This document shows positions 21,375 to 58,344 of a stretch of 58,344 nucleotides of DNA, piece after piece. Position numbers and translations under genes: made by a program. The notes under the pieces are model-generated. The model worked only from the letters and a program-made list of their open reading frames with translations. It ran no database searches and had not been told where the DNA came from. The DNA lies in the NCBI RefSeq assembly GCF_004010195.1, contig NC_057717.1, positions 102,516,849 through 102,575,192 on the forward strand. The letters run 5' to 3'. Source of the DNA: Chiloscyllium plagiosum (Eukaryota). Each line of letters begins with the position of its first letter. Positions within the stretch are counted from its first letter, which is position 1.

Positions 21375-22690
21375 GTGAGTACTATTCGACTGAGTGTGGC
21401 ATCAAAGAGGCCCAGCTAAACTGGAATCAATGGAAATTGGGGAAAATTCTGCACTGGTTGGAATCATACCTGCCACAAAGGAAAATGGATATGTTTGTTA
21501 GAGGTCAGTCATCTCAGCTCCAGGACAACTCTGCAGAAGTTCATCAGGGTAGTGTCCTCAGATCAACCATCTTCAGCTGCTTCATCAATGATCTTCCCTC
21601 CATCATACGGTCAGATGTGGGGATATTCACTGATGATTGCACAATGCCAATCACCATTTGTGACTCCTCAGATACTGAAGCAGCCCAAGTTCAAATGTAC
21701 TAAAACCTGGACAATATCCATGGTGTGGAGGTGCCAGTGTTGGACTGGGGTGGACAAAGTCAAAAGTCACACATCACAAGGTTAAATTCCAACAGATTTA
21801 TTTAAAATCACAAATTTTCAGAGCACTGCTCCTTTATCACCCTCTCTTGACGAAGGACCAGTGCTCTGAAAGCTTGTGATTTAAAATAAATCTGTTGGGT
21901 TATAAACTGGTGTTGTGTGACTACTGACTTTGGATAATATCCAGGCTTGGGCTGACACGTGGTAAGAAACATTCACATTTTACAAATGCAAGGCAATGAC
22001 CATCTCCAACAAGAGACTATTCAACTCACTGCCCCTTGACATTCAATGGCATTACCATCACTGCATCCACCACTATCCTTGGAGTTCAAGTGATCGGCAA
22101 AACAACTGGATTCACCATATAAACACAGTGGCTGCAAAGGCAGATCAGAGGCGGGGAGTCCTGTGGGGAATAACTCACCTCCTGACCTCCAAAACACCTG
22201 TCCGCCGTCTACAAGGCACAAGTCAGGAGGGTGAGGGAATACTCCCCACTGGCCTGGATGGGTACAGCACCAACAACACTCAAGAAGCTCAACACCATCT
22301 GGGATAAAAGCAGCCCGCTTGATTGGCACCACACCCACAAGCATCCACTCCCTCCACCACCGACGCTCAGTAGCAGCAGTGTGTATCATCTACAAGATGC
22401 ACTGCAGAAAATCACCAAAGATCCTCAGGCTGCACCTTCCAAACACATGATCACTTCCATTTAGAAGGACAAGGGCAGCAGATACATGGGACCACCGCCC
22501 CCTGCAAATTCCCCTCCAAATCACTCACCATCCTGACTTGGAGATATATGGCCATTCCTTCAGTGTCGTTGGGTCAAAATCCTGGAACTTCCTCCCTAGT
22601 TGCACTGTGGCGTTCCCAAACTGCTGCAGCTCAGCACTGCCTTTGCAGGAGCAACTAGGGACAGTTGCCCACCTCCCCAGAATTAGTAAA
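21375..22690 (+). mobile_element. Second LINE family, RT C-terminal half to 3' end (interrupted at 21721-21930)
   Basis: LHWLESYLPQRKM...VHQGSVLRSTIFSCFINDLPSIIRSDVGIFTDDCT (QG and F-x-DD RT motifs). Confidence 0.9.
21721..21930. mobile_element. Lineage C fold-back element with decayed hammerheads and 13-bp TSD
   Basis: Inverted arms (cacacatcacaaggttaaattccaacagatttattt / aaataaatctgttgggttataaactggtgttgtgtg); TSD tgga(c/t)aatatcca at 21708-21720 and 21931-21943. Confidence 0.8.
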
Positions 22691-22946
22691 AATCACTCAG
22701 CTCCTGGATGTACTAACAGACACGATGATGTTCTCTCAGTACCACATCACAGATTGCATGGCATCTTATAAGTAGCTAACCTGTTGAGGGCCATCACATT
22801 CTCAGGGTGGAAAGTGCACATGGAAAGAGAGAATGTTCTCCTCCTTACATCTGATTTGGAGTCAGAAATCTAAGAGCAAAAAATATGTTCGAATGGCCCT
22901 CTTCAGAGATACACCTCTGCACCAGGTGGGACTTGAACTCAGCCCT

Positions 22947-23034
22947 TAAAAATGTGTTGCTGGAAAAGCGCAGCAGGTCAGGCAGCATCAAAGGAACAGG
23001 AGAATCGACGTTTCGGGCATAAGCCCTTCTTCAG
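22947..23034 (-). ncRNA. Lineage A short element with intact hammerhead core (23007-23034) and 12-bp TSD
   Basis: Minus strand CTGAAGA-a-gggc-ttat-gccc-GAAACGTC; TSD gaactcagccct at 22935-22946 and 23035-23046. Confidence 0.75.
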
Positions 23035-23142
23035 GAACTCAGCCCTCCTGGCTCAGAGGAAAGGACACCACCAGAAACCATTTTTAAAGAACCACATTAG
23101 GGAGATTTAAACAATCCTTGGATAAGCACATGGGTGATGATG

Positions 23143-23263
23143 GCTTGGAGATGCCGGTGTTGGACTGGGGTGTACAAAGTTAAAAATCACACAACACCAG
23201 GTTATAGTCCAACAGGTTTAATTGGAAGCACTAGCTTTCGGAGTGCTGCTCCTTCATTAGGTA
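23143..23263 (-). mobile_element. Lineage C single arm inside a CR1 tail
   Basis: Minus strand CTAATGA-a-ggagc-agc-actcc-GAAAGCTA-gtg (core mutated). Confidence 0.75.
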
Positions 23264-24121
23264 GTATAGGGGGGACAAGCTGAGAATAGTCCACAGATCA
23301 GCGCAACATTGAGGGATGAAGGGCCTGTTCTGCGCTCTATTGTGCTATGTTCTAGAACCTGTACAGATATGTTGCAGCATACCTCTACGGCAAGTGGGAC
23401 TTGACCTGGCCCTCCTAGCTCAGAGGCAGTGGTGTTACCACTGTACCACAAGACTCCAGCAGCATCAGTTCAATGTTATCTAATCAACCTGTTCAGAGAT
23501 GTTATTACACCCCTCTGGAGCAGGTGGGACTTGAATCTGGGACTCCTGCCTCGGAGGTAGGAACACTAACACACTGTCAATCTGCCAAACCAGCTTCAGC
23601 AGCAAACATTAATCCCTAACTGATCTCTTTTGACTGCAATCAAACTATTTAGCCTTGAAGTCAGGGTAAAGACAGCTGCAGGATAGTGCCCAAGGTACAA
23701 ATCTATCTGTGATTAGCAAACATTGCATCTCCTTCTTATATTATTAATAATGGTGATACACATTATGATAAATGATGAGCACTTTCAAATTGTTAAATAG
23801 TTCATCTTGAAAGCATGTTTTTAATTTTCAGCTGAAATTAAAATGTTATCTGTCTGTCACTTAATAATCAAACGGAAATGATCTTTTGGCCTTTGCAAAT
23901 GTTTCCAATTAAAGATGTTTAAAAAGAAAGATTTATGACTGAATACCAGACATAAAAAATCCATTTAAGCAATGCTGGCTGCACCTTGCTGGGATTAAGC
24001 CATCAAATTCGGTTTAAAGGGAATTACATCTCATTGGCAAACTGTTTTCAATGTAGCCTCCTTTCTCTCCCTTTTTGGATTGTGGTAGTTTTACTTTAAT
24101 GGGGTTTGTCAGTCATCCAGT

Positions 24122-24260
24122 TTCCTCATTCCTGAAGAAGGGCTAATGCCCGAAACGTCGATTCTCCTGTTCCCTGGATGCTGCCTGACCTGCTGCGCTT
24201 TTCCAGCAACACATTTCCAGCTCTGATCTCCAGCATCTGCAGACCTCATTTTCTCTTCAA
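24122..24260 (+). ncRNA. Lineage A short element with intact hammerhead core (24132-24159) and 11-bp TSD
   Basis: CTGAAGA-a-gggc-taat-gccc-GAAACGTC; TSD agtcatccagt at 24111-24121 and 24261-24271. Confidence 0.75.
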
Positions 24261-24728
24261 AGTCATCCAGTCAAAGCATGATGATGCACCCGTTGAGGGG
24301 AAACTCCTGTTGCCATGGCGATTTCCCTTCGCAGACTGGTGACAGCACTGAAAGCAGGCCGCTCGGCCCATCTCTGTTCAGGCTAGCTCTCTTAAGGAGC
24401 AGATCACTTTGTGCGACTTACTCGCCCTCTCTCTGTACCCTGATGTAGTGCTCCTTTTCAGACGATAATGCAATCCTCTCGTCACAGCCTCGATTGAAGC
24501 TGCCTCGACCACAGTTTTGAGGCCGTGCATTCCACAACCTAACTACTCGCTGTAGGGGAAAGATGTGCTTCAGGCTGCCCCTTGCTTCTTTTGACATTTC
24601 TCTTCAATCTGCACCCCCTCATTCTTGACCTTCCACCAATGGGAATGGTTTCTCCCTGGTCACTCTGCAAAGACACCTTGTGAATTTGAAAACCTCCATC
24701 AAATCTACGCAACTGAGGTCAATATTTG

Positions 24729-24936
24729 CCAGGCAGCATCAGGAGGCGGAGAAGTCAACGTTTCGGGTATTAACCCTTCTACAGGATTAGATATGGGGGG
24801 GGTAGGGGGAATCCTAAAAACGAGCTATACCCAAAGTGTTGACTTCTCTACCTCCTGATGCTGCCTGGCTTGCTGTGTTCTTCCAGCCTCCTGTTTCTCT
24901 CCTTTGGATTCCAGTATCTGCAGTTTTCTGTCTCTG
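24729..24936. mobile_element. Lineage E fold-back element with perfect 17-bp TSD
   Basis: TSD actgaggtcaatatttg at 24712-24728 and 24937-24953; minus strand CTGTAGA-a-gggt-taat-accc-GAAACGTT-gac; inverted arms. Confidence 0.85.
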
Positions 24937-25199
24937 ACTGAGGTCAATATTTGTTCCCTAACCATAGTGCTCACTGGCCAGACCAATATCTATTGGCTGT
25001 CTCTGTTTGTGTTGTTTTTATATCAGACAGGTGTTTGGTCGTTATTCCCCCGGGAATGAGCATCACTGGCCGGGTCAGCATTAATTGCCCATCCCTAACT
25101 GCCCCCCAAGATGCTGATGGTGAGCTCAGAGTCCTAGAGTATTACAGCCCATTGTGTCTGCACTGTTTATCAAACGTCTATCTCCTGTAGAGTTCTAGG

Positions 25200-25300
25200 A
25201 TTCTGAAGGAAGGCCACTTGACCAGAAACGTTAACTCTGATTTCTCTCCACAGATGCTGCCAGACCTGTTGGGCTTTTCCAGCAATTCCCGACTTTGTTT
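25200..25300 (+). mobile_element. Lineage B single arm (further copies about 29410-29525, 30345-30445, 33645-33785, 43270-43545)
   Basis: Shared gaaacgttaactctg...tctccacagatgctgccagacctgctgag; consensus CTGAGGA-a-gggtc-NNNN-gaccc-GAAACGTT-aac. Confidence 0.75.
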
Positions 25301-25374
25301 CTATCTTCTCCAGTCCTGCTTTCTAATACTTCACACAAAGTACATTAAACATTTCGACTGATCATCTAAATATT

Positions 25375-25990
25375 TAGAGTTATCGAGTCATACAACACCG
25401 AAACAGACATCTACCATTAACTCTATCTATATCCCTCAGGTTTTTATAAGCTTTTCTCAGGTCACCTCTCAACCATATATGGTCCAGTGAAAAAAGTCCC
25501 AGCCTATCCAACTTTTCTTTATAACTCAAACCTATACCTGGTAACATCCTGGTAAATCTCTTCTGAAACTTCCCCAGCTTACTGATGCCCTTCCTATAAC
25601 TGGACGACCAGAACTGGGCACAGTATTCCAGAAGCTCATATAATCACAACCCTTCTCTGATTTTTATTTAATTTTTTTATGTGATGTGGACCTTGCTAGC
25701 AAGGTCAACAACTGTTGTCCATCGCTAGTTGTCTATAAAATGAGTGGCTACCATTTTGAAGGGCAGTTAAGAGTCAATTGCTTCACAGGGATGCATCTCA
25801 TCTGGGCCTGGAGGTTTATCCCATTTTAATTCCACTTGAACAGCAAACACCTCCTCCCTCCCAATGGTAATTCGGGTATAAGGCAGTCCTCCTGTTAGGT
25901 TTCTGTAGCTGTGCTGACCACCTTTCCCATGAATAGATGCAAAGTACTCACCCATCTCCTCCAGCTCCAAACACCGTTGCCCTGTGGGCA
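25375..25990 (-). mobile_element. CR1 ORF2 fragments (25375-25637; 25780-25990)
   Basis: EEMGEYFASI...REEVFAVQVELKWDKPPGPDEMHP (K-S/P-PGPD motif). Confidence 0.75.
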
Positions 25991-26484
25991 GCTGGACTCT
26001 GGAGAAAAGGCCATTGTGACATCCGTAAGTCTTTGTTGGTGAAAATGTTGCATTGCGTTGCTTTGGATAGCAAGGGGAGGTGCTGACCGAGGGAAGAAAG
26101 GGGCGTTTTGTCATGCTCCTTGCCCAAACAATGGAGCACAAACTCTCAGGAAGCTTTTAGCTTTACTGTAACACTCGCCATTGGAATCAGGAGTTAATGA
26201 CAACCCAGTACTAGCTAATCTGTCCTTATATGGAGCTGAGCTGCCTGTTGCATTAAACAGGCCAGCAGGCAACTGCACTGAGACAGCCAGGGACATCCGA
26301 GTCTTGTCATCATGTTTAATAAGATGTCACAGGGTTAAGGACAATACAGTAAAGAGTATTGCAAGCTGTCAGTGATCTTGCTCGTCAGCCAAAGAGCTGT
26401 CTGTTTTTATCTGGAGGTTATACAAAGCCTATTAGACTGCTCTGCCTGTCTATAGCTTCTCAGTCATTGGGTATTTAGGAGTTA

Positions 26485-27450
26485 CTACATCATGTTGAGG
26501 TTGTACAGGACATTGGTAAGGCCACTGTGTACAGTTCTGGTCACCCTGCTAGAGGAAAGATAGTATTAAACTGGAGAGGAATCAGAAAAGATTTACCAGG
26601 ATGGAATGGGAGGTTTGAGCTATAAAGGAGAAGTTGGATAGGCTGGGATGTTCTTCACTGAAGGGTAGAAGGTTGAGGAGTGATCATAAAGAGGTTTATA
26701 AAATCATGAGGGGTATAGATAAGATGAATAGCGTAAGTATTTTCCTTAAGGGGCAGGAGTTCAAAACTAGAGGGCATAGGTTTAAGTTGAGAGGAGAAAG
26801 ATTTAAAAGGGACTTGAGGCAACTTTTACACCCAGAGGGTGGTTTGTGCGTGGAATGAACTGCCAGAGGAAGTGGTAGATGTGGGTTACAGTTACAGCAT
26901 TTAAAGCAGTTACAGCATCAGGCCTCAATCCTGATGAAGGCCTTTTGCCCAAAACGTCGATTTTCCTGCTCCCTGGACGCTGCCTGATCTCCAGCACCTG
27001 CAGTACCCACTTCTGCCTACCACATCTAAATCACATTTGGACAGGTACATGGACAGGAAAGGTTTAGAGAGATGTGGGCCAAGCACAGGGAAATGGGATG
27101 AGTTTAGTTTGGGAAATCTGATCGGTGTGGAGGAGTTGAACTGAAGGGTCAGCATCAGGCCTCAATCCTGATGAAGGCTTTTGCCCAAAACGTCGATTTT
27201 CCTGCTCCCTGGACGCTGCCTGACCTGCCGTGCTTTTCCAGCACCACTCTAATCTTGACTCTGATCTCCAGCATCTGCAGTCCTCACTTCTGCCTACCAT
27301 ATCTAAAAGACATTTGGACAGGTACATGGACAGGAAAGGTTAGAGGGATGTGGGCCAAGCACAGGGAAATGGGATGAGTTTAGTTTGGGAAATCTGATCG
27401 GTGTGGAGGAGTTGAACTGAAGGGTGTTTCGATGTACCACGATTTGCGAC
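26485..27450 (+). mobile_element. CR1 3' fragment with an inserted lineage A element; the insertion plus CR1 tail is tandemly duplicated (26913-27149 / 27150-27425)
   Basis: EVYKIMRGIDKM...TRGHRFKLRGERFKRDLR; two copies of aatcCTGATGA...AAAACGTCgatt 237 nt apart. Confidence 0.85.
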
Positions 27451-31264: not shown

Positions 31265-31775
31265 TGGAAGACCGTCAGAAAGCTGCCTGTGTGGAGTTTG
31301 CAAGCTCTCCCTCTGTCTGCATGGGCTTCCTCGAGACGCTCTGGTTTCCAAAGGTGTGCGGGTGGATTAGCCGTGCTAAATTGCCCCGTAGTGTCTGAGG
31401 ATATGCAAACAAGGTGGGTTAGCTATAGGAAATGCAGGGTTACAGGGATAGGTAGTCAAAAAGTGTGGCGCTGGAAAAGCACAGCCGGTCAGGCAGCATC
31501 CAAGGAACAGGAGAATCGACATTTAGAGCATAAGCTCTTCATCCTGATGTAGGCCTTGTGCTCAAAATGTTGACTCTCCTGCTCCTTGGATGCTGCCTGA
31601 CTGGCTGTGCTTTTCCAGCGCCACACGTTTTGACTCTGATCTTCAGCATCTGCAGTCCTCACTTTCTCCTACAGGGATAAGTAGGGATCTGGTTTGGGCA
31701 CTCTTTGGAGGGTCAGTGCAGACTTGATGGGCTGAATGGCCTCTTCCTGCACTGGAAGGATCCTACAATTCTAAA
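31265..31775 (+). mobile_element. HE1-like SINE containing a lineage A fold-back element (31456-31669)
   Basis: V-core; TSD tacagggata(g/a)gtag at 31441-31455 and 31670-31684. Confidence 0.85.
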
Positions 31776-31820
31776 GTGTGGAGTGGTATGAGAGTTCACC
31801 TGAGGGTGGCCATGGTGAGG

Positions 31821-31989
31821 TCAGGGACAAAAAAATCTGCAGATGCTGGAATCCAAGGAGGCTGGAAGAGCACAGGAAACCAGGCAGCATCAGGAGGTGG
31901 AGACGGCAACATTTCAGGTCCTGAAGAAGGGTCAGACCCAACACGTTGACTTCTCCACCTCTTAATGCTGCCTGGCTTGCTGTGTTCTT
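31821..31989. mobile_element. Lineage E fold-back element with TSD
   Basis: TSD ccatggtgagg at 31810-31820 and 31990-32000; gtc-CTGAAGA-a-gggtcagaccc-AACACGTT-gac at 31918-31950. Confidence 0.8.
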
Positions 31990-32539
31990 CCATGGTGAGG
32001 CCAGGAGCATAACGCAGTGCCAATGCCTACCTGTGGGGGAGGAAGGTTGGAGGGAGATGGTGCCCTTGGAGTAGTCAATGGATGTTGCAGTGATGCAGCA
32101 GTTGGATGATGAGCTGACAGTCATTGAGATGCAATCACCAGGTACCCCATTCTGACTTGTGTCAGGGGTTCGTGCCACTTCATCCCTCAGTGGCCAGTTG
32201 GACAACTGGGAGGTGAGCTGGGGTTTGCATGAGATGCAAACATGTGCAAACGAGATTCTGAGCTCACACCGAGGGGGAAATCCAGGGTGGTGTTTCCCAT
32301 TCCTATCATATTTTCCCACCTTCCTTACCAGTTCCCATACCACACCAGCCAGGAGGAAGTTCTGCCCATGATCACTCCCCTCGTCAGCTCCATCCTGAGG
32401 GATGTGCCCCAGATTTGTCAGAATAAAGCACTCAACTGGTGCAAATCATGTGGGTCCTCCATTCCTGAGTGAAGTATCTTCCTGAGATACTACATGTTAT
32501 GTTACATCAAAGAGGTTAACAGAATCATTGAATTTATCC

Positions 32540-33127: not shown

Positions 33128-33221
33128 TTCCTGAAGAAGGGCTCATGCCCGAAACATCGATTCTCCTGCTCCTTGGATGCTGCCTGACCTGCTGCGCTTT
33201 TCCAGCAACACATTTTCAGCT
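33128..33221 (+). mobile_element. Lineage A single arm
   Basis: CTGAAGA-a-gggc-tcat-gccc-GAAACATC at 33131-33158. Confidence 0.75.
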
Positions 33222-33794
33222 CGTTTCTGCCCGACTGTCAGTCAACAATATCGTCTGCGAACAGAAGCGCAAGGAAAGACTCTGGTGTTCCTGTCATATC
33301 TTATCCCATCCTTTGCCAACATCTTAGGGTTGCGTGGTGGGGTCCGGTGGGAAATGTCACAGGAATTTCACTCACACAGCAAGACCCCACACAAAGCGAG
33401 GTGCGATGGGAAACTCTGCAAACTCGCCATGAGCTACTTATCGTTCACTGGAGGATGTCAAGGTGGTCTCATTGCAATCTCACTCACTGCACCCCCTCAT
33501 TATTTCCGATGGACTGTCCGATGTAATCTGCTGCTGGCCCGGGACTTTAAATCTATTGAGCCAGAGGGGGAGGGACAGAGTGTGATCTCTGCAGCTGGGT
33601 GCTCAGAGAAATTATCACCACCAGGGTGGTCTTTTACAATGAGGGTTAATGTTTTGGGTCCAGCGTCCCTTCCTCAGAGCAGGCCTGGACCTGAAACGTT
33701 ACCTCTGATTTCTCTACACAGATGCTGCCAGACCTGCTGAGCTTTTCCAGCACCTTCTGTTTTTGTTTCGGATTTGCAGCATCTGTTTGTAAAT

Positions 33795-34360: not shown

Positions 34361-34517
34361 CGAGTGCTGTGTTTCGACACGGGGGGATGTGGAGAAAGTG
34401 CTTCCGGTAGTGAAGAGGACTGAAATGAGGACTCATAATCTACTCTCCCTTCAACTGCCCCTGTTGCTTTGTGGGCATCCAAGAATCGTGTGCAGCAGTA
34501 CCTTCCAGAACTGGTCA

Positions 34518-34730
34518 TGATGTGGAGGAGCCAGTGTTGGACTGGGGTGGACAAAGTTAAAACCCACACAATGCCAGGTTATAGTCCAACAGGTTTATTT
34601 GGAAGCACTAGCTTTCGGAGCACTGCTCCTTCATCAGCACCACAACCACCTGATGAAAGAGCAGTGCTCTGAAAGCTTGTGCTTCCAAAGAAACATGTTG
34701 GACTATGACCTGGTGTTGTGTGATTTTTAA
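34518..34730. mobile_element. Lineage C fold-back element with hammerhead cores on both arms (- 34609-34637; + 34650-34678)
   Basis: CTGATGA-a-ggagc-agt-gctcc-GAAAGCTA (-) and cac-CTGATGA-a-agagc-agt-gctct-GAAAGCTT-gtg (+). Confidence 0.85.
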
Positions 34731-35289
34731 CTTCTGGAAGTGGGAATGCTTTGAAGGGGGTGCTGCTCCCAGTAATTACTAATAAATCCAGGGAAGAAAT
34801 GTTTTTACTCAGAGAGAAGTTAAAAAGCAGAACTCACTGCTGAAGGAAATGATTGAGGTGATTTGGGGCAGAGACTGGAGAGAAAAGGAGATAGGAAGAT
34901 ATTCCCAGATAGATAAAATGCGGGAAGATCTTTGTGAAATATGCATGACCGCATCTGAATGGCATATTTGCACCCTCCATATTCCACATAGAGTCATAGA
35001 GTTGTACAGCATGGGAAAAATCTCCTTTGGGGTTAAAGAGAAAGGCAAAGAGAGACCTCAGTGCTATATCCCAATGCCATCTTTGGGATTGGGAGAGGAC
35101 ATTCATTTCCAATTTGTCCACTCCCTGTGGATTCTAGCCCTCGGTTTTGCCTCATGACCCACTCAGGAACTGAGAAGCAGTGAAGTGGGGAACTACAGGG
35201 GCAATCCTCAAGTACTCTGTGAGGGTTGTGGCTCACTGGATGACATGTATGCTTACAGAAGGATACGTGTAGACTTTGCACTGCAGTCC

Positions 35290-38629: not shown

Positions 38630-39250
38630 TAGGGTGGCTCAGTGGTTAACACTGCTGCCTCCACAGCACCAGGGACAGGTGTTCAAATCCAGCCTTGGGC
38701 GACTGTCTGTGTGGAGTTTGCACATTCTCCCTCTGTCTACGTGGGTTTCCTCCGGGTGGTCTGGTTTCCTCCCACAGTCCAAAGGTTTTGTAGGTTAGGG
38801 TGGATTGGCCGTGGGAAATTGTTCATAGTGTCCAGAGGTGTGCAGGTTAGGTGGATTGGCCATGCTAAATTGTCTGTAGTGTCCAGGGATGTACAGGTTA
38901 GGTGGATTGGCCATGCTAAATTGTCTGTATTGTCCAGGGATGTACAGGTTAGGTGGATTGGCCATGCTAAATTGACTGTAGTGTCCAGGGATGTACAGGT
39001 TAGGTAGATTGGCCATGCTAAATTGGCTGTAGTGTCCAGGGATGTACAGGGTAGGTGGATTGGCCATGGAAAATTGTCTGTAATGTCCAGGGATGTGCAG
39101 ATTAGGTGGCTTGAACATGGAAAATGTAGGTTTACAGGGATATGAGTTGGGGGTGTGGTGGAGTGAGGGGGATCTGCACAGGATGATCTTCAGAGGGTCT
39201 GTCCAGATATAATCGGCTGAATGGCCTTTTTCATACTGTCAGGATTCTAT
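38630..39250 (+). mobile_element. HE1-like SINE with an internal 51-bp tandem array (about 6.5 units, 38791-39120)
   Basis: Unit caggttaggtggattggccatgctaaattgtctgtagtgtccagggatgta; gives the 17-aa repeat ORFs in the track. Confidence 0.9.
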
Positions 39251-41109: not shown

Positions 41110-42255
41110 CATTGGCAAGTTATGTTGTAGCTTTGTAGAACTTTGGTTAGGCTGCATTTGGAATTTTGCTTACATTCTTCATAGAATCTTTTACAGTGTG
41201 GAAACAGGCCCTTCGGCCCAACAAGTCCACACTGGCCCTCCAAACAGTAACCCACCCAGACCCATTCCCCTACGTTTGATCCTTGACTATTGCACACATC
41301 CCTGAACACTACAGGCAATTTAGCATGGTCAATTCGCCTAACATTTCGCCTAACATCTTTGGACTCTGGGAGGAAACCATAGCACCCAGAAGAAGCCCCC
41401 ACAAACACAGGGAAAATGTGCAAACTCCACACAGACAGTTGCCTGAGGCTGGAATCGAACCTTGGTCCTTGGCGCTGTGAGGCAGCAGTGCTAACCACTG
41501 AGCCACCGTGCCACCTGCGTCAGCACACTACCAGAAGGATGTTGAAGCTTTGGAGAAGATACAGAAAACATTTACTGGGATGTTGTCTGGTTTGAAAGGT
41601 GTTAGCTATAAAGAGAGATTGGAAAAACTCAGCTTGTTTTCATTTGATTGTCAGAGGCTGAGGGGCAACCTGATAGAAGTTTACAAAGTTTGAGAGGCGT
41701 GGATAGGATGGATAGTCAGGGTCTCTTTCCCAGGGTAGAAATGTCGATTATTAGGGGACGTAGGTTTAAGATGAAGGAGAGTTAGTTGAAAGGAGATGTG
41801 AGAGGCAAATCTTTCACACAGAGGATGGAATGCAATGCCAGAGCAGGTGAGAGATGGAGACACAATGGCAACATTTAAGAAGCATCTTCACAGACACATG
41901 ATTGAGCAGGGTAAAGAGGGATGCTGCGTGGAGGCAAAGGTTTTTAATTGAGAAAGGTGTTGCATGTCAGTACAATCTTGGATGGTGCTAGAAAAGCACA
42001 GCAGGTCAGGCAGCATCCGAGGAGCAGGAAGATCGACGTTTTGGGCAAAAGCCCATCATCAAGAATGATGATGAAGGGCTTTTGCCCGAAACGTCGATTT
42101 TCCTGCTCCTCGGATGCTGCCTGACCTGCTGTGCTTTTTCAGCGCCACTCTAATCTAGACTCTGATCTCCATCATCTGCAGTCCTCACTTTCTCTTACAG
42201 TCTTGGATTGGCCGGAGGGCCTGTTCCTCTGCCGTACTGTTCCTTGTTCTTTGAA
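41110..42255 (+). mobile_element. CR1 3' fragment with nested HE1 SINE (-, 41180-41512) and lineage A fold-back (41984-42195)
   Basis: HYQKDVEALEKIQKTFTGMLSGL; TSD taca(a/g)tcttggat at 41971-41983 and 42196-42208. Confidence 0.85.
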
Positions 42256-46804: not shown

Positions 46805-47068
46805 AGTTTCTCCTTATCTCCATTCCCTTTACTCTAAGGCTGTGCCCTCAGGTCTTGGTCTCTCCGACCAATGAAAACATCTTCCCAACATCCACTCTGT
46901 CCAGACCATTCAGTATTCTGTATCTTTCAATTAGATAGTTTCTCCTTATCTCCATTCCCTTTACTCTAAGGCTGTGCCCTCAGGTCTTAGTCTCTCCGAC
47001 CAATGAAAACATCTTCCCAACATCCACTCTGTCCAGACCATTCAGTATTCTGTATCTTTCAATTAGAT
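46805..47068. repeat. 132-bp near-perfect tandem duplication within CR1
   Basis: 46805-46936 and 46937-47068 differ at one visible position. Confidence 0.9.
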
Positions 47069-49309
47069 CTCCCACTCCCCCCACCCCCCATTCTTTTTAA
47101 ACTCCGTTGAGTATCAATCCAGAGTCCACAAACATTCCTCATATGTTAAGTTTTTCATTCCTGGGATCATTCTCGTGAACCTCCTCTGAATACACTCCAG
47201 GGCCAGTGCATCCTTCCTGAGATATGGGGCCCAAAACTGTGCATGATACTCCAAATGTGGTCTGACCAGAGCCGAATAGAGGCCTCAGAAGTACATCCCT
47301 GCTTATATATTCTCGTCTTGTCAAAATGAATGCCAATATTGGGTTTACCTTCCTAACTATTGACTCAGCATGTCAGTTTACCTTAAGAGAATCCCAGACT
47401 AGGCCTGCCAAATCCCTTTGCATATCAGATTTCTGAATTTTCTCCCCATTTAGAAAAGAGTCCATGTCTCTATTCTTCCTATAAGATGCATGACCTCACA
47501 CCTTCCCAGATTGTACTCCATCTGACACTTCTCTGCCCACTCTCCTAACCTGTCCAAATCCTTCTGCAGCCTCCCTGCTTCCTCAATGCCAACTGTCCTT
47601 CTACCTATCTTTGTATCATCTGCAAACTTAGTCAGAATGCCCTCAGTTCCTTCATCTAGATCATCAATGTATGAAGTGAAAAGTTGTGGTCCCAACACTG
47701 AGCCTTACAGAACACCACTTGTCACCGGCTGCCATCCTGAGAAGGACCCTTTTATCCCCACTCTCTGCTTACTGCCAGACAGCCAAGCTTCTATCCAGGC
47801 TAGCACCTTGCCTCTAACACCATGGGCCCTTATCTTACTCAGTAACCTCCTGTGCGGCACTGTGTCAAAGTCCTTCTTGAAGTCCAGGTAGATTACATCC
47901 ATTGGCTCTCCTTGGTCTAACCTGCTCATTACTTCCTCAAAGAATTCTAGCAGATTTGTCAGGCATGACCTCCCCTTAATGAAACCATGTGGATCTGCTC
48001 TATTTTACCATATACTTCCAAGTCTTCAGAAATTGCATCCTTCGCAATGGGGTCCAAAATCATACCAACGACTCAGGTCAGGATAATTGGCTTGTCATTT
48101 CCCGACTTCTGCCCCTTCTTAAACGGGGGGGGGTGAGGGAGGGTTACCTTAGCAATTTTCCAGTCCTCTGGGACCCTCCCTGACTCCAGTGAATCCTGAA
48201 GGATCACCACTAACAACTCCACTATCTCTTCATATCTACCTTTGGGGTATATCTACCTTCAGGCCATTCAGTTATTCTAGCACCTTCTCCTTGGTAATGG
48301 TCACCATACTCATGTCATTTCCCCCCCCCCCCCGCCACTGATTCTCTTGAATTTTTGGGATATTAATCTTTCTTCCACTGTGAAGACTGACACAAAATAA
48401 TTATTCACTTTCTCCGCCATTCCTTTGTTCTCCACTACTATCTCTCCAGCATCATTTTCCAGCAGCCCAATGTCCTCTTTTATCTCTCTTTTACCCTTTA
48501 TATATCTAAAGAAACTCTTATGTCACTGGCGAGGTTACCCTCATATTTAATGTTCTCCCTTCTTATTTCTCTTTGTTGTTGTGCTCTGTTGGCGTTTGGA
48601 GCTGGAAAAGCACAGTAGGCCAGGCAGCATCCGAGGGGCAGGAGAATTGACAGTTCGAACATGAGCCCTTCACAGGAATCTTCATTCCTGATGTAGTGCT
48701 TATGTTCAAAAAGTTGATTCTCCTGCTCCTCAGATGCTGCCTGACTGGCTGTGCTTTTCCAGCAACACGCTCTCGACTCTGAGCTTTAGCATCTGCAGTC
48801 CCTTTATAAGCTTCCCAATCCTCTGGTTTCCCACTGCCTTTTGCCACATTACATGCCTTCTCTTTTGCTTTTATGCTATCCCTGCCTTCCCTAGGCAGCC
48901 ACGGTTGCTTCATCCTCCCTGCACCATGCTTTTTTTTCTTCGGGATGAATCTCTGCCGTGTCTCCTGAATTATTCCCAGAAACTCCTGCCATTGCTGTTC
49001 CTGCTGGGCTCCTCTCCCAGTCAATTTTACCCAGTTCCTCCCTCATGCTTCTGTAGTTGCCTTTATTCAACTGTAATTCTGTTAGCGAGTTTTGAGAAGA
49101 TTTGTAGCTCAGGTTGAGGTTCTGGATGTAGGTTTGCTCGCCGAGCTGGAAAGGTTCTGGATGTAGGTTTGCTCGCCGAGCTGGAAGGTTCGTTTTCAGA
49201 TGTTTCATCACCATACTAAGTAACTGCTGTTCCTGCTGGGCTCCTCTCCCAGTCAATTTTACCCAGTTCCTCCCTCATGCTTCTGTAGTTGCCTTTATTC
49301 AACTGTAAT

Positions 49310-50383
49310 TCTGTTAGCAAGTTTTGAGAAGATTTGTAGCTCAGGTTGAGGTTCTGGATGTAGGTTTGCTCGCCGAGCTGGAAATTTCGTTTTCAGATGT
49401 TTCATCACCATACTAAGTAACGTCATCAGTGAGCCTCTGGTGAAGCACTGGTATATGGCCCGCTTTATATTTATGTATTTAGGTTTCCTTGGGTAGGTGA
49501 TGTTATTTCCTGTGTTGGTGATGCCATTTCCTGTGTTGGTGAGGTTATTTCCTGTTCTTTTTCTAAGTGGGTGGTAAATGAGGTCCAAGTCAATGTGTTT
49601 CTTGGTAGAGTTCCGGTTGGAATGCTATGCTTCTAAGAATTTTCGTGCATGTCTCTGTTTGGCTTATCCTGGATGGATGTGTTATTCCAGTCAAAGTGGA
49701 TTCCTTCCTCATCTGCATGTAAGGATACTAGTGAAAGTGGGTCATGTCTTTTTGTGGCTAGTTGGTGTTCATGTATCCTGGTGGCTAGTTTTCTGCCTGT
49801 TTGTCCAGTGTAGTGTTTGTTACAGTTCTTGCACAGTATTTTGTAAATGACGTTCGTTTAGCTTGTTTCTCTGTGTAGAGTCTTTCAAGTTCATTAGCTG
49901 CTATTTTAGTGTGTTGGTGGGTTTGTGAGCTACCATGATGCTAAGAGGTGTGAGTAGGTCTGAGTCATTTCCAAGATGCCTTTGATTTGGGGAGAGTGGC
50001 TAGAATTTCTGGACACATTTTGTCTGCTTGTTTAGGTTTGTTGCTGAGAAATCGGTGTTCATTGGAGAATCCGTTCTTTTTGAATATGCTGTATAGGTGT
50101 TTCTCTCTTCTCTGCATAGTTCCTCTGTGCTGCAGTGTGTGGTGGCTCATTGAAATAATCTTCTAATGCACCTTTGTTTGTGGAGGTTGGGGTGATAGTT
50201 TCTGTCGTTCAGTATTTAGGCCGTATGTGTTGTTTTCCTGTAGATGCTGGATTGAAGTTCCTCATTGGCTGTTCACTCTACTGTGACATCTAGAAATGGC
50301 AGTTTGTTGTTGTTTTCCTCCTCTTCAGTGAATTTTATGCCTGTAAGGATATTGTTGATGGTCTTGAAGGTTTCATCTAATTT
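49310..50383 (-). mobile_element. Penelope-like element (RT C-terminus, linker, GIY-YIG, hammerhead tail) with 17-bp TSD
   Basis: IKFTEEEENNNKLPFLDV, KHLYSIFKKNG, NVIYKI.CKNCNKHYTGQTGRKLATRIHEHQ; hammerhead ctca-CTGATGA-c-gttact-tagtat-ggtgat-GAAACATC-tgaa; TSD ctttattc(aa/ct)ctgtaat at 49293-49309 and 50384-50400. Confidence 0.9.
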
Positions 50384-52280: not shown

Positions 52281-52975
52281 CGTTCCAGGCACCACCCACT
52301 ATGCAGCTGGGAGCCATGAAAGGAACATCACTCCTGATGTCATCTCAAAAATACAGTTTCTTTAACAATGTTTTCTCCCTTTTGTCTCAAGTCAGGTTCA
52401 TAACCCACAAGCTAAAAAAAGGAGAGAATGCCACCTACATATGATGGAAAACTAAAGAGGCTACCCACATTCCCCTATAATTAATATATCCCTTTGATAG
52501 TTGACTTTATAATGAGCTGCAAAGTAATCTCACTTGCATCTTTCAACGTATCTAAAACTTCTTAACAATCTGCATCTATTCAAACGCAAGTTTTTTTTTG
52601 AATTGATCACCTCTGCTCTCGTTGCCCTGTATTGGCTTATGGTTTGGTGACACCACTGTTTAACTTAAATCCTTCCATTGCCCGTCACCCCTCCCTACCT
52701 CTGTAACCAACTCCTGCCCCCGGTTCTCCTGAGGTCCCTGTACTCCAGTTGGATGCTCTTGTGCATCCCAGGTTCCCATTGCTCTGCCATTGGAGACTGT
52801 GTGTCCAGCTGCCTGCAAGTCCCTCCCACAAGCTCTCCATCTTTCTCGACTCCTCCTCAGACCCTCTGGAAAGCCCATCTCATTGATCAACTTTACAGTT
52901 ACCTGTCCTTCTGTGCTGAATGTTGTCTCATTCCCATCTAATGTAGTACCTTGAAATATTTCACGACGTAGATTC

Positions 52976-53190
52976 ATGGGGTTGGTTAGCTCAGTGGGCT
53001 AGACGGCTAGTTTGTGATGTAGTATGACATCAACAGCGTGGGTTCAATTCCCACGGTGGCTGTGGTTACCATGCAGATCCTTTCTCCCCTTGTGTGAAGC
53101 GTGTTGACCCTCAGGTTAAACTCACTCACCTACCTAAGAAGACAGCAGCCCTGTGCTCTGGTTAAGCTATAGTGGCTTTACCTCTTTAAG
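52976..53190 (+). mobile_element. tRNA-derived SINE (third family)
   Basis: A box ttagctcagtgg, B box gggttcaattccc; homologous pieces at 13.5-14.1 kb and about 19185-19245 (-). Confidence 0.7.
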
Positions 53191-53917
53191 TTGAAGGTAA
53201 TTATGCAATAAGCCATCATCATGGGCTTTTTTAAAAACCATGTTGAGAAGAGCTATGTTTACACAAGGCTATAATATCAGTTTTCCAGGCTATATTGTTC
53301 TGTTTTCCTTTATTTTGAAAGTGTGATGTTATCAGTGAGTTTGATTTGAAGGGGTTTTTGAGTCTGGCAGAATGAAGGGCTTGATTTACAGTGTACTGTT
53401 TAAGTAAGTATTTTGATAGATGTCTGTACCTTTGCTGTCATTAACTTAAGCTTCTTTTCACTCACCATCACTCCCACATGTCAGTTCTTCAGTTCATATA
53501 ATGATCACCCAATAAAACACCAGTGAATATAAACATAAAACAAATGCTGCTAATATTTATTGCACCGTTCCACACAACCTCCATTTGGCAACCTTTCCTG
53601 GGGTCCCTCTCCCCAGCAGATGTTACTGATTTCTCCCTCAATTTTATTTTTCCTTTAGTGCGATGTGGGGATAACTGGCAAGTTGCTCCCTATTCCTAAC
53701 TGCCCTAACACCAGTTGGAATTTTAAGAGTCCCTTCTAGCAAAGACAGTGCTCCCATTTCTCATAAATTCTGCTACATAGTACGATGAAAGGTTTCTGAT
53801 TGATATATGTATCAATATCCCTTTTAGAGTTTGGATTTCAAACTAGTGGCATTTGGATGTTGGTTATTTTTGTAAACGGTTTGAGAATAATTAGATCAGT
53901 CAGTCTTCCAAAAATAT

Positions 53918-54072
53918 GGTAAAAACAATGACTGCAGATGCTGGAAACCAGATTCTGGATTAGTGGTGCTGGAAGAGCACAGCAGTTCAGGCAGCATCCA
54001 AGGAGCTTTTTAGAACTAGGGTGAGGTGGGGGAAGGGGAAATGAGGAAACTGTTGAAGTCCACATTGATGCC
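53918..54072 (-). mobile_element. 3' end of a second Penelope-like lineage (coding C-terminus plus lineage A tail)
   Basis: Minus strand GINVDFNSFLISPSPTSP* (54072-54016) joined to ...gctccttggatgctgcctgaactgctgtg...ctgcagtcattgttttacc. Confidence 0.6.
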
Positions 54073-54126
54073 TAATCCTATTGAAACACACAAATACCTG
54101 TGCTGGCTTGACAAGGTAGACTTTGA

Positions 54127-54279
54127 TTCTGGAATAGACTGGTGCTGGAATCCTGATGAAGGGCTTTTGCCGGAAACGTCGATTTTCCTGCTCCTCGGAT
54201 GCTGCCTGAACTGCTGTGCTTTTCCAGCACCACTCTAATCCAGACTCTGGTTTCCAGCATCTGCAGTCATTGTTTTTAT
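54127..54279 (+). mobile_element. Lineage A element with perfect 15-bp TSD
   Basis: TSD caaggtagactttga at 54112-54126 and 54280-54294; aatc-CTGATGA-a-gggc-tttt-gccg-GAAACGTC-gatt at 54149-54184. Confidence 0.85.
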
Positions 54280-54930
54280 CAAGGTAGACTTTGAGAAGAT
54301 ATTCCCAAAACCCTTCCCTCATTCAGGTCTCTGTATTGCAGGGGTCACCATCCTCTATTGTGGCTACACTGAGCTCTCCCCATTTGTCCTCAGTCCCATT
54401 CTTCAAGGTCTGGAGGGGGTTTCTGTTAGTTCATGATACACCATTGGAAGTAAGGAAGCTGAGAATACCAGTGATGTTCGAGGTAAAATGCGTTAAGAGG
54501 TATCTGGATACCTTCCGAAACTGGTTTATGTTCATAATAAGGCCAGGCTCATCCACAGACATTTTGTCACACTGTTCTTTCTTTGGACGAGACCGGTGGA
54601 CGAACTCCTTGGACTCCCAACAGCTTTTGACCAAGCGTTTGGGTCAATGAGCAGATAGCTAGGCATTCACGCAAGGTGAAGCCAGACGCTCAAGGTGGAG
54701 CGACTAAGAGAGAGAGAGAAAGCGAAGCATTGATGAGTGCAAGACTGGTGGGTCGGACCTACCCATTACAAAGGTATTCCTCCAAAATCATAATAACGGG
54801 GGTGGGAACATGATATAGATTGGGGTGGACCCTGAACCCGACAGAGTCATGAGGCAGCTGATCTTAGACAACAGTTCACAGAGAGGGGGAGTTGTTTGAG
54901 GTCAGGTATTTGGTGGACGATGGGAACAGC
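54280..54930 (+). pseudogene. Highly decayed Gypsy-like LTR retrotransposon integrase C-terminal region
   Basis: Across frames: DFEKIF; YLPKLVYVHN; SST...FFGR; PVDELLG; KVFLQNH..GGNMI...DPEP.RV, in Gypsy integrase order. Confidence 0.45.
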
Positions 54931-55293
54931 TCACCCTGTGGGACTAGGAGGGACGGTGTAAGATGGCTCAAGAGAAGTGGAGTGGGATGGTGATGTGGAC
55001 ATTCTTGGGTTGGGGCGGGAGCTGTGTGTTGTGAATCCCGGGAGCGCGCAGCCACCATGGGGAAGCCTTTTCCCACTCTGGGAAACAGGGAGAACCTGTC
55101 AGGAGGCAGGGACTGAAGCAGCAAGTGCAGCCTACCATACTAGAGACCTGGATCCCAATGTGAGTGATCACCCAACCAGCCTGGATCCATTGGAAGGTAC
55201 CAGCCCTGGAAAGAGGCCGAGTAGATCGTATCGAGCAAACACTGGATCTCGCCCCAGCTCATACCAGATTGGTGGGGCAGGAAGAGAATGCTG

Positions 55294-55382
55294 TCGAAAA
55301 GTGTGGCGCTGGAAAAGCACAGCAGGTCAGGCAGCATCTGAGGAACAGGAGAGCCGACATTTCAGGCATAAGCCCTTCATTA
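55294..55382 (-). mobile_element. Lineage A single arm
   Basis: Family sequence; flanking repeat agaatgctg at 55285-55293 and 55383-55391. Confidence 0.7.
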
Positions 55383-56409
55383 AGAATGCTGCCATTAATG
55401 TAGACTAGCCTTCGTGGTACAACTGAATCTCCTAATCGCGCAACTGCTGAGCATGCGGTCACTGTATCGCTGTTGGTGTGGCACATTTGAAGCAAGGGCT
55501 GATGGGAAGGCAGGGCCAATGTTCAAAGGAATTCCTCAGCCCAGTGCAAACCACAAGCTCCTCCTGTGTGCGCATTGTAAGCAGTTCCTTGTTTATCTAA
55601 AATTTCTCCTCCCGATTGTAATAATGCCCGCGGAGGAATAATGCCTGCATCCTGATCTTTGCGTCATTCATATGTTCAAATCCCGTGTTGCAGAGAGTAC
55701 TCATGGGAGACCTCTTCACACTTCACGGGCAAGAACTGGGATCAATCACACAGCTCACACGTAAATCTCTGAGAAGGAGAAGGAATCCCTCCACACTTGG
55801 TGATTGTTCAGGAATTGATGAAAACGTCACTTTGCTGTGGGCTTTAAGATCTTTCAAACTTAATCCTCAGATGGGGGTATGAACTGTTCACCTTTACACT
55901 GAGTTCGCTGCTTTATTTTCTCTCTCTGGGATGGATGCTTAATAGAAAATCTCTGTGAATATTCATTTCTGAGCTTTCACAGCACTTAGTTCACACTTAC
56001 TCCTTGAACTGTACATTTCGGGATGGATAATCCAAAAAAACTGCCCGTGTCTGACTTTCCATTCATCTGTAACCCAGTGTACTGGGTGTGGCAGAAGCTG
56101 TCAGATTAATGCCTCATTAAGCACTTGAATTTATTTTTAGATGGATCGCTTGATTAGTTTTATTGTCTCGTCCTCCTTTTAACTAATAAACATCTGTTCC
56201 ACTGTTGAACACAATCTGCCTTCTCACGTTACCATGTTTCAGTGAGTGACTGTGGCATTGACTAAAATTAAACTAAAACAATGATCTACTAGGGATCTGG
56301 ATTGTCCTGTGGTGCCATCAGCTGTGAGTATTACACCAGCAAGCGGCTAAGTTTCAATAACTGGTCACAGGAGCAGAAGTGAGTCATTCAGCCTCTTGTA
56401 CCATCCTGT

Positions 56410-56740
56410 AATCACAGAATCCTCACAGTGCGGAAGCAGGCCATTCGGCCCTTTGAGAACACACTGACCCTCTGACATCCCACTCAAAGACTCACCCCAT
56501 CCCTGTAACCTCGTATTTCCCATGGCTAAGCCACACATTCGCCCCATCCCTGTAACCTCGTATTTCCCATGGCTAACCCACACACTCACCCCATCCCTGT
56601 AACCTCGTATTTCCCATGGCTAATACACACACTATGGGCAATTTAGCATGACCAATCCAGCTAACCTGCACAGGAGGAAACAAGAGCACTTGGAGGAAGC
56701 CCATACAGACCCCAGGAAAACATGCAATCTCCACACAAAA
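56410..56740 (-). mobile_element. HE1-like SINE with three 47-bp internal tandem units (56491-56625)
   Basis: ctcaccccatccctgtaacctcgtatttcccatggctaa starting at 56491, 56538 and 56585. Confidence 0.85.
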
Positions 56741-56742
56741 GT

Positions 56743-58344
56743 GTAACTACTCCTGTTGCTGCCTGTAGCTACTCCTGTTGCTGTCTGTAGCTATTCCTGT
56801 CGCTGTCTGTAGCTAGGAGAAAGTGAGGACTGCAGATGCTGGGGATCAGAGCTTAAAAATGTGTTGCTGGAAAAGCGCAGCAGGTCAGGCAGCATCAAAA
56901 AGAAGGAGAAGGAGAACCGACGTTTCAGGCATAAGCCCTTTATTCCTGAAGAAGGGCTTATGCCCGAAACGTCGATTCTCCTTCTCCTTTGATGCTGCCT
57001 GACCTGCTGCGCTTTTCCAGCAACACATTTTTAAGCGCTGTCTGTAGCTACTCCTGTTGCTGCCTGTAGCTACTCTTGTCGCTGCCTGTAGCTACAGACA
57101 GCAACAGGAGTAGGTACAGACAGCAACAGGAGTAGTTACAGACAGCAACAGGAGTAGCTACAGACAGGAACAGGAATAGCTACAGACGGGAACAGGAATA
57201 GCTACAGACAACAACAGGAGTATTCAAAAACAGCAACAGGAGTAGTTACAGACAGAAACAGGGGTAGTTCAGACAGCAACAGGAGTATTCAAAAACAGCA
57301 ACAGGAATAGCTACTGACAACAACAGGAGTAGTTACAGACAGCAACAGGAGTGACTACAGACAGCAACAGGAGTAGATACAAACATCTGTAGGAGTCTTT
57401 ACAGACAGCAACAAGAGTAAATGCAGACAGCAACAGGAGGAGTTACCGACAGCAACAGGAGTAGATACAGACAGCAACAGGAGTAGCTACAGAGAGCAAC
57501 AGGAGTAGCTACAGACAGCAACAGGAATAGTCACAAACAACACCAGGAGTATTTACAGACAGGAACAAGAGTAGATACAGACCGCAACAGGAGGAGTTGC
57601 AGACAGCAACAGGAGTAGCTACAGACAGTTACAGGAGTAGGTGCAGACAGCAACAGGAGTAGATAGAGACAGCAACAGGAGTATGTGCAGACAGCAACAG
57701 GAGTGGCTACAGACAGCAACAGGAGTAGTTACAGACAGCAACAGGAATAGCTACAGACAGCAAGAGGAGTGTTACAGACAGAAACAGGAGTAGCTACAGA
57801 CAGCAACAGGAGTAGTTACAGACAGCGACAGGAGTAGCTACAGAGAGCAACAGGAATAGCTACCGACAGCAATGGGTGTAGATACAGACAGGGACAGGAG
57901 TAGTTACAGACAGCAACAGGAATAGCTACAGACTGCAACAGGAGTAGCTACAGACAGCAACAGGAGTAGCTATAGAGAGCAACAGGAATAGCTACAGAGA
58001 GCAACAGGAATAGCTACAGAGAGCAACAGGAATAGCTACAGACAGCAACAGGAGTAGCTACAGACAGCAACAGGAGTAGCTACAGACAGCAACAGGAATA
58101 ATTACAGACAGCAACAGGAGTAGATACAGAGAGCAACAGGAATAGCTACAGACAGCAACAGGAATAGCTACAGATAGCAACAGGAGTAGATAGAGTCATT
58201 TACAGGAGTAGCTACAGACAGTTACAGGAGTAGTTACATACAGCGACAGGAGTAGATACAGACAGCAACGGGAGTAGATAGAGTCATTTACAGGAGTAGC
58301 TACAGACAGTTACAGGAGTAGTTACACACAGCGACAGGAGTAGG
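56743..58344. repeat. 22-bp minisatellite/satellite (gctacagacagcaacaggagta)n, inverted before 57091, running off the window end
   Basis: About 57 forward units from 57091; reverse-complement units at 56743-56815 and 57036-57091. Confidence 0.95.
56816..57035. mobile_element. Young lineage A fold-back element with intact hammerhead core (+, 56946-56973) inserted in the satellite
   Basis: Near-perfect inverted arms; CTGAAGA-a-gggc-ttat-gccc-GAAACGTC; cgctgtctgtagcta on both sides (56801-56815, 57036-57050). Confidence 0.9.

Follow-up and report, generated by a model that had tools for sequence, protein, structure and literature searches.

A stretch of 58,344 nucleotides of the Chiloscyllium plagiosum genome (contig NC_057717.1, positions 102,516,849 to 102,575,192 of the forward strand), hereafter called the window, contains short fold-back units in which two arms carrying a minimal hammerhead ribozyme motif are joined head to head. 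These units are probably dead-on-arrival insertion products of endonuclease-positive Penelope-like elements (PLEs), each formed at its own insertion. They are non-coding and, judged from their sequences, the short units are best read as extreme 5'-truncated PLE copies. The first-pass annotation of the window, which listed eight of them, had described a class of mini-Penelopes resembling short interspersed elements (SINEs). The Penelope type of retrotransposition implied by this description is borne out by variable target-site duplications (TSDs) of 9-17 bp, an optional tail of 38 nt, inverted 5'-truncated arms and a minimal hammerhead of the dimer type. The other implication, that the fold-back is copied as such, is not supported by the alignment of genomic copies. 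The units do not appear to be copied whole because their junctions vary, because the arms end outward at the reverse transcriptase start sites of PLEs, and because the two arms of longer copies have unrelated lengths.

Anatomy and junctions of the fold-back units

Each arm consists of a hammerhead motif followed by about 60 nt and by one of two fixed 3' ends located 38 nt apart, designated here as the short form and the tail form. At least three sequence families were distinguished, the units being named by a leading coordinate: family A (31456, 41984, 48590, 56816, 15603 and single arms), family B (21721, 34518 and 23137) and family C (24729 and 31821). A fourth family is represented by a truncated coding element at 49310-50383. 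Upon alignment, the arms of family A display a common 5' end at (A)TTC-CTGANGA, the short form ending about 90 nt past the box and the long form about 38 nt later. Those of family B begin at CTGATGA and their tail occupies reference positions 97-134, again 38 nt. The fold-backs of the window are the following, with the strand of each arm in parentheses:

21721-21932, family B: tail-bearing arm 21719-21839 (minus), short-form arm 21848-21932 (plus); TSD 21708-21722 / 21931-21945, 15 bp with 2 mismatches.
24729-24936, family C: left arm 24729-24791 (minus) with a decayed hammerhead, right arm 24827-24936 (plus) with a tail and no CTGANGA box; TSD 24712-24728 / 24937-24953, 17 of 17 matching.
31456-31669, family A: short-form arm 31461-31543 (minus), tail arm 31542-31668 (plus), hammerhead decayed at CpG; TSD 31441-31455 / 31670-31684, 15 bp with 1 mismatch.
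31826-31989 (unit 31821), family C: left tail arm (minus) stopping inside helix II, right short-form arm (plus) from CTGAAGA at 31921; TSD 31810-31825 / 31990-32005, 16 bp with 1 mismatch.
34516-34738 (unit 34518), family B: tail arm 34516-34649 (minus), short-form arm 34650-34733 (plus), whole hammerheads at 34609-34637 (minus) and 34650-34678 (plus).
41983-42196 (unit 41984), family A: left arm 41983-42071 (minus) without tail, ending about 12 nt before the usual short-form end, tail arm 42069-42196 (plus); TSD 41971-41985 / 42196-42210, 15 bp with 2 mismatches.
48593-48801 (unit 48590), family A, old: arms 48601-48679 (minus) and 48679-48801 (plus, partial tail).
56816-57035, family A, within a 22-bp satellite: tail arm 56817-56940 (minus), short-form arm 56942-57030 (plus), whole hammerhead 56946-56973; TSD 56801-56815 / 57036-57050, 15 of 15 matching.
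15603-15762, family A, absent from the first-pass list: short-form arm 15611-15684 (minus), tail arm 15684-15755 (plus); TSD 15590-15602 / 15763-15775.

The arrangement reported in the first-pass annotation, an antisense arm followed by a sense arm in units of about 170-220 bp, was recovered: inverted repeats are found at or beside all eight listed sites, and unit lengths, measured between the TSDs or the arm ends, range from 164 bp (31826-31989) to 223 bp (34516-34738). The inverted-repeat arms were located at 21755-21932, 24728-24869, 31454-31635, 41983-42147, 48601-48763 and 56847-57040, and inverted arms are also present in units 31821 and 34518. The arms had also been described as joined a few bases 5' of CTGANGA, which holds for six of the eight units but not for 24729, where about 35 nt of unrelated filler separates the arms and the long arm is devoid of the box, nor for 31821, one arm of which stops inside helix II. 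The junction of unit 15603 is asymmetric, the short-form arm reaching the 5' edge of the hammerhead and the tail arm starting 44 nt inside the unit. Identity between arms amounts to 79-90% within one window unit versus 72-80% between units, a difference that is not decisive as the units compared belong to different subfamilies.

The arms are unequal by an extension of 32-38 nt on one of them, and TSDs of 13-17 bp flank six of the eight listed units, so that the inequality and the variable duplications noted at first sight are both upheld. No TSD was found at units 34518 and 48590, where it was sought. Unit 15603 and five single arms display TSDs of 10-15 bp, and the range over the window and the genome loci is 9-17 bp. 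A TSD score of at least 11 was reached by 1.5% of 2000 random placements. The perfect TSD of unit 56816 constitutes weak evidence because the periodicity of the surrounding satellite gives indistinguishable repeats. This satellite covers window positions 56742-58343, with 57 copies from 57088, and flips orientation near 57090. Unit 21721-21932 is inserted into a reverse transcriptase-like frame of another element (RVT_1 fragment 21350-21700, plus strand).

The genome searched amounts to 3.56 Gb. For the families typified by units 41984 and 34518, the window copy was aligned with 10 other loci each. All 11 loci of the 41984 type have their own flanks and their own TSD, the left arm ending at the short-form site and the right arm carrying the tail. 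The filler at the junction varies among them (TCA, TGACC, TAGA, GGG, CGGA, AGAC, TCC or none); as a rule, ATTCC is still present in one of the arms and the other begins at TGATGA. In the 11 loci of the 34518 type, the inner ends of both arms differ within about 18 nt around the box. Private junctions were therefore observed in 22 of 22 aligned fold-backs from two families, which argues against amplification as a unit, one of the two outcomes envisaged in the first-pass annotation. The short fold-backs appear to be formed at each insertion because both flanks and junctions are private to each locus. Wholly random junctions, which had been equated with ordinary truncation products, do not describe the data either: the junctions cluster at the 5' edge of the hammerhead while being private to each locus. 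Arm lengths are unrelated in longer copies, as in locus L002, where a tail-less arm of 485 nt faces a tailed arm of 206 nt, and in locus L064, where the corresponding lengths are 812 and 66 nt within a 16-bp TSD. Such unrelated lengths fit two independent, separately primed cDNAs.

Probable Penelope-like origin, proposed mechanism and alternatives

The kinship with coding PLEs is best illustrated by a single-arm family A copy at 24122-24260 (plus strand), which carries a tail, a whole hammerhead and a perfect 11-bp TSD. This copy matches 40 scored genome places at 96-100% identity and is 98-99% identical to the 3' end of longer copies of a young PLE family. The homology extends in the 5' direction in all nine other loci fetched, with totals of 165, 206, 227, 282 (three loci) and at least 560 nt (three loci). 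The nine loci share one common 3' end and differ in all their downstream flanks; at the sequence level, they are a 5'-truncation series. Farther upstream, sequence identity is about 100% in all 40 places scored, and an exact 32-mer of the unit occurs 1743 times in the genome as compared with 0 for the reversed control. The family must therefore have been active very recently.

A frame in which a CxxC linker and a GIY-YIG motif can be recognized is present in the longer family A copies. In loci L064 and L072, the GIY-YIG domain of this frame scores 20.6 bits with Pfam, below the cut-off, and is 43% identical over 47 aa to the GIY-YIG of the window. The order on one strand of L072 is endonuclease, about 240 nt and hammerhead unit, which is the canonical PLE order. 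The window itself contains representatives of a separate coding family:

49310-50383, minus strand: 5'-truncated coding PLE with GIY-YIG at 49636-49857, hammerhead box at 49423-49429 and 3' end at 49310.
49078-49224, minus strand: short copy of the 3' end of this family, starting 8 nt inside the hammerhead and containing a 35-bp internal tandem duplication.

The frame at 49636-49857 reaches 23.5 bits in Pfam for GIY-YIG (cut-off 22.6), and the hammerhead box lies downstream of the endonuclease on one strand. The 17-bp TSD previously attributed to this element is present, with 2 mismatches. Pfam detected no reverse transcriptase domain in the truncated coding copy 49310-50383. The host sequence around the short copy 49078-49224 is itself duplicated (48990-49350). 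When the 3' end of the coding family was used as a 331-nt query, matches in 30 genome loci ended either near 286-293 or near 320-331.

The 38-nt difference between the two 3' ends is the published PLE tail. This tail has been described as an optional extension of 30-40 bp, often present at just one end of the insertion (PMC8557442), and has been traced in an anole PLE to two adjacent internal start sites of the reverse transcriptase (PMC11167929). Its distribution in C. plagiosum obeys a strict rule: exactly one arm is tailed in 37 of 37 genome-scale fold-backs (sample sets of 11, 11, 3, 7 and 5) and in five other classifiable units of the window. Of 15 single arms, 11 are tailed. Should the tails of the two arms be independent, the probability of 37 out of 37 would be at most 0.5^37.

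The orientation of neighboring copies was assessed from the 96 listed matches of the 32-mer on contig C1. Close pairs comprise 13 in the minus-plus order, 0 in the plus-minus order and 1 direct pair with copies 212 nt apart, while 69 matches are unpaired. The spacing is 136-154 nt in 7 of the 13 inverted pairs; 148 nt would be expected if both arms began at the box. Twenty of the unpaired matches on C1, taken in listing order, were used as a sample of 5' ends. Apart from the group located at the hammerhead edge and discussed below, 4 copies start inside the hammerhead, 3 at a site 116 nt upstream, 2 at a site 150 nt upstream and 3 between 46 and 128 nt upstream, and none extends past the site at 150 nt.

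Further recurrent 5' ends were encountered among the longer copies, exactly 282 nt from the end of the tail in five loci (L003, L004, L008, L091 and L102) and at about 248 nt in three (L087, L092 and L098). Two candidate sources of the 5' ends were tried and rejected: the hammerhead cleavage site, near which only about 2 of 26 arm ends are located, and a spliced-leader or intron origin in the window copies, where the TSDs directly abut the 5' end.

The mechanism that we propose can be summarized as follows. Each arm would be a cDNA copied from the 3'-terminal 90-140 nt of a PLE RNA, begun at one of the two reverse transcriptase start sites 38 nt apart and yielding either the short form or the tail form. 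Two staggered nicks, which would later give rise to the TSD of 9-17 bp, would each prime one cDNA. The two cDNAs would run inward and be joined head to head with the loss or addition of a few bases. The usual template would possess, or behave as if it possessed, a 5' end at the 5' edge of the hammerhead, for which a transcription start in the pseudo-long terminal repeat (pseudo-LTR) or a stop of the reverse transcriptase are candidate causes. The priming step fits the published behavior of the anole PLE protein, which nicks and extends both target strands in vitro (PMC11167929).

A number of observations weigh against this account of the units as insertion debris. A longer inverted composite, made of an antisense endonuclease fragment and an inverted arm, has one junction that recurs, at about 100% identity, in all 40 loci scored, and some inverted structures are therefore copied as units. 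The inverted arm of this composite is likewise 282 nt long. Of 30 loci fetched, 12 have a composite whose outer end is of the short form and 16 one whose outer end is of the tail form. Judged from the visible fragments, the composite was apparently copied from a transcript antisense to the coding frame and ending in the inverted arm. Two priming events independent of each other would not lead one to expect the one-tail rule. The 5' ends are not evenly spread: 8 of the 20 sampled copies have their 5' end in the 12 nt that immediately precede CTGAAGA (P about 1.6e-6, binomial with uniform spread), and 19 of 21 family A arms of the window start within reference positions 1-18. This clustering makes plain random truncation insufficient. 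The 20 copies represent one contig and one young family, and the fold-back loci of the 41984- and 34518-type families were chosen by best score and not randomly. The visible upstream sequence of family A, which contains N in 25 of 30 loci (L053-L082), shows no reverse transcriptase frame, and none was seen for family B. These N runs range from 33 to more than 1500 bases, stop at a small number of fixed positions with respect to the element and do not resemble assembly gaps. Finally, helix I of the hammerhead comprises just 2-5 bp, its activity being predicted from the motif.

A bolder interpretation of the preferred 5' end, to which we attach limited credence, is that the mini-units report a discrete PLE RNA of about 100-140 nt extending from hammerhead helix I to the two reverse transcriptase start sites. 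Such a species may derive from run-off cDNA synthesis, the enzyme initiating at the 5'-proximal start site on a transcript that itself began in the pseudo-LTR. If this proved true, the one-tail head-to-head form would be the in-vivo footprint of an asymmetric two-strand target-primed reaction carried out by a dimeric PLE particle, and the hammerhead would mark or set the 5' boundary of the template instead of cutting at the classical site.

Other routes to an inverted unit were weighed against separate priming at each insertion. In a SINE-like lineage, a fold-back master would be transcribed and its hairpin RNA copied whole by PLE proteins. A head-to-head unit would indeed give a valid PLE 3' end on transcripts of either strand, the composite keeps its junction while its outer end alternates, and the length of the fold-backs is nearly constant, with 39 other scored genome matches across query positions 9-218 for the 41984 type and 39 across positions 1-218 for the 34518 type. 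This constancy is nevertheless explained by fixed outer start sites together with a preferred 5' end, and the filler and the inner arm ends differ in every one of the aligned loci of both families. In addition, no fixed difference between left and right arms was apparent by eye in the aligned 41984-type copies, unpaired arms outnumber fold-backs among the matches listed on C1, and no Rfam match to a SINE head (tRNA, 5S or 7SL, with its pol III promoter) overlaps any unit at E values up to 10. We consider such a lineage improbable. The alternative that a single cDNA folds back at the 5' end of its template, the second arm being copied from the first, is also unlikely, even though it would account for the near symmetry of most short units, in which one arm is complete, the other is about 5 nt shorter and a few intervening bases resemble a hairpin loop. 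An arm copied in this way cannot hold sequence that the first arm lacks, yet the arms of L002 and L064 differ by hundreds of nucleotides, those of unit 15603 start at reference positions 9 and 56, and nothing in the tail-less arm could have served as template for the tail.

The hairpin-like appearance and the flanking direct repeats are also reminiscent of miniature inverted-repeat transposable elements (MITEs) or fold-back DNA transposons moved by a transposase. This possibility is negligible in view of the variable TSD length, of arms unequal by a fixed 38 nt that leaves 32-38 nt at one end without a partner, of the abundance of single arms provided with TSDs and of the 5'-truncation series with one fixed 3' end. 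Non-LTR retrozymes, in which tandem hammerhead repeats spread via circular RNA, would explain a hammerhead within a short non-coding repeat in a PLE-bearing genome, the one direct pair among the 96 listed matches and the two direct copies at 26923-27289. They are very hard to reconcile with the inverted orientation of 13 of the 14 close pairs, with a minimal PLE motif in place of the canonical type I hammerhead with loop-loop contacts, with the scarcity of arm ends near the cleavage site (about 2 of 26) and with the lack of reported back-joined reads. Tandem Repeats Finder did not detect any array of units in the window.

Considered as PLE debris in a PLE-rich genome, the units are of use as a natural record of the poorly understood integration of Penelope elements. 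The very young copies, which number in the thousands, show that both target strands are used, that the two arms always differ by the tail and that the 5' edge of the hammerhead is a preferred end point of the cDNAs. These regularities provide predictions for the in-vitro PLE system published in 2024 and bear on the role of the hammerhead in such elements.

Hammerhead motifs, transcripts and other copies in the window

Minimal hammerheads were searched with a descriptor composed of CTGANGA, a helix II hairpin, GAAA, a two-base palindrome, T and a base other than G. Six whole motifs were found in the window (17078 plus, 23034 minus, 24132 plus, 34637 minus, 34650 plus and 56946 plus) versus 0.01 in shuffled sequences. 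Among the eight listed units, the whole motif is kept in just 34518, on both arms, and 56816, on one arm; the hammerheads of the remaining units have decayed, mostly at CpG. In the six whole motifs, the GAAA box continues into CGTC in family A, and into GCTT or GCTA in family B. The palindrome being part of the descriptor, its presence in the window carries no independent weight; the genome copies contain it as well. There is no helix III loop, and the palindromic ACGU or AGCU could let two copies pair. An extra base precedes helix II, as an offset of one base gives the best fit in all six motifs. Helix I is short, with 2-3 pairs in family A and 5 pairs including one mismatch in family B. Helix II opens with a G-C pair in family A and with either G-C or A-U in family B. 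Within the latter, G-C is found in most right arms and A-U in 3 of 11 (the window unit 34516 and loci L107 and L112, out of loci L103-L112 and window motifs 34609-34678). This variation suggests that the source lineage underwent a compensatory change, as opposed to random decay. Rfam returned no hammerhead family for these sequences, either at the gathering score or at E values up to 10, and only microRNA-like matches to the hairpins; the lack of a hammerhead match is expected because the motifs have no helix III.

The first-pass annotation had proposed that a transcript from either strand would bury its hammerhead in a double-stranded RNA hairpin. This proposal agrees with the modeled structures: unit transcripts would fold as hairpins of about 90 bp, with predicted energies of -131.9 kcal/mol (z -15) for unit 34516-34738 and -162.1 kcal/mol (z -21) for unit 56816-57035. 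Both the hairpin and the burial follow from the head-to-head architecture and do not amount to a demonstrated function. None of the runs recorded as RNA contains the element. In single-cell poly(A) reads bearing the same species label (set X19), 320 reads map to the element in both orientations and 87% of them continue into unlike sequence, so that they mostly derive from copies embedded in other transcripts. No pile-up of molecule ends, including at the predicted cut site, was reported in these reads, which neither supports nor excludes a discrete RNA or cleavage, and no back-joined reads were reported. A drop in read depth where the hammerhead begins on its 5' side, loose ends at positions 1029 and 1032 of L072 and five strand-switch reads (1021/1032) mirror the structure of the genomic copies. 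Two further sequence sets, X5 and X1, consist of contigs of uncertain kind, and a fourth set, X20, contributed no reads on the element.

Beside the fold-backs, the window contains about a dozen single-arm copies of these families that were absent from the first-pass list. Those not yet described are:

7831-7959, minus strand: family A, with tail.
17069-17168, plus strand: family A, short form, whole hammerhead at 17078; TSD with 2 mismatches.
22947-23034, minus strand: family A, short form from CTGAAGA, whole hammerhead; perfect 12-bp TSD.
33128-33222, plus strand: family A, short form.
55299-55388, minus strand: family A, short form; 10-bp TSD with 1 mismatch.
23137-23260, minus strand: family B, with tail, from CTGATGA.
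54127-54279, plus strand: family A, with tail, after a 24-nt antisense piece; perfect 15-bp TSD core 54112-54126 / 54280-54294.
26923-27289, plus strand: two direct family A copies, 26923-26990 (internally deleted) and 27160-27289 (with tail), inside a duplicated 3' end of a long interspersed element (LINE).

A separate antisense arm lies at 53932-54004, near the copy at 54127-54279. The two direct copies belong to a segment (26640-27423) corresponding to the 3' end of a CR1/L2-like LINE that includes a family A unit; the unit and the LINE tail are duplicated directly, about 253 bp apart.

A Pfam scan of all 92 window frames of at least 90 aa returned just two RVT_1 fragments from other elements and one match at chance level. 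These fragments of other retroelements are located at 21350-21700 (plus strand) and 47708-48004 (minus strand). Two unrelated repeats were also recorded, a 132-bp unit present twice at 99% identity (46805-47068) and a 51-bp unit repeated 6.3 times (38792-39113).

Comparison with known systems

In LINE-1 twin priming, the second target strand primes a second cDNA, which results in an inverted 5' part inside one TSD. The units described here would likewise involve a second strand as primer, with an inverted part within one TSD. The LINE-1 pieces however originate from one RNA and do not overlap, whereas both arms of the present units start at the element's own 3' sites and hence duplicate each other.

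The architecture of the units, namely an inverted 5'-truncated copy, a one-sided tail, variable TSDs and a minimal hammerhead, is already published for PLEs. Insertions of endonuclease-positive PLEs (PMC8557442, PMC11167929) display the same strong 5' truncation, inverted 5'-truncated copy by the 5' end and variable TSDs, together with a tail of 30-40 bp restricted to one end, a hammerhead close to the 3' end and two adjacent internal start sites of the reverse transcriptase. The present units differ from them in that both arms are usually 90-140 nt long, leaving just the hammerhead and the start-site region, and in the accumulation of 5' ends at the hammerhead's 5' boundary. The 37 fold-backs analyzed here put a figure on the one-tail rule; no such count appears in the available text of these two accounts. 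The literature located on sharks and Penelope and on PLE template switching contained, as judged from listings, no description of such mini fold-backs, which is no proof of absence.

The motif itself resembles the minimal hammerheads of metazoan PLEs (Cervera and De la Pena 2014, PMC4209133). Common to both are the CUGANGA and GAAA boxes, the additional base ahead of helix II, the palindrome ACGU or AGCU in place of a helix III loop, a helix I of few pairs and the large number of solitary copies. Dual motifs on opposite strands, about 100-700 bp apart, are also described in that work. In contrast, the opposite-strand motifs of C. plagiosum lie about 10-150 bp apart in one insertion, most copies are decayed, and helix II of family B often opens with an A-U pair in place of G-C.

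Non-LTR retrozymes (PMC7229834; bioRxiv 10.64898/2026.07.22.740005) are similar to the units in being short non-coding hammerhead repeats with sequence kinship to PLE pseudo-LTRs, and are thought to depend on PLE proteins. They are arranged as direct tandem repeats with canonical type I hammerheads and give rise to circular RNAs, whereas the units of C. plagiosum occur as inverted pairs or single copies and carry the minimal motif.

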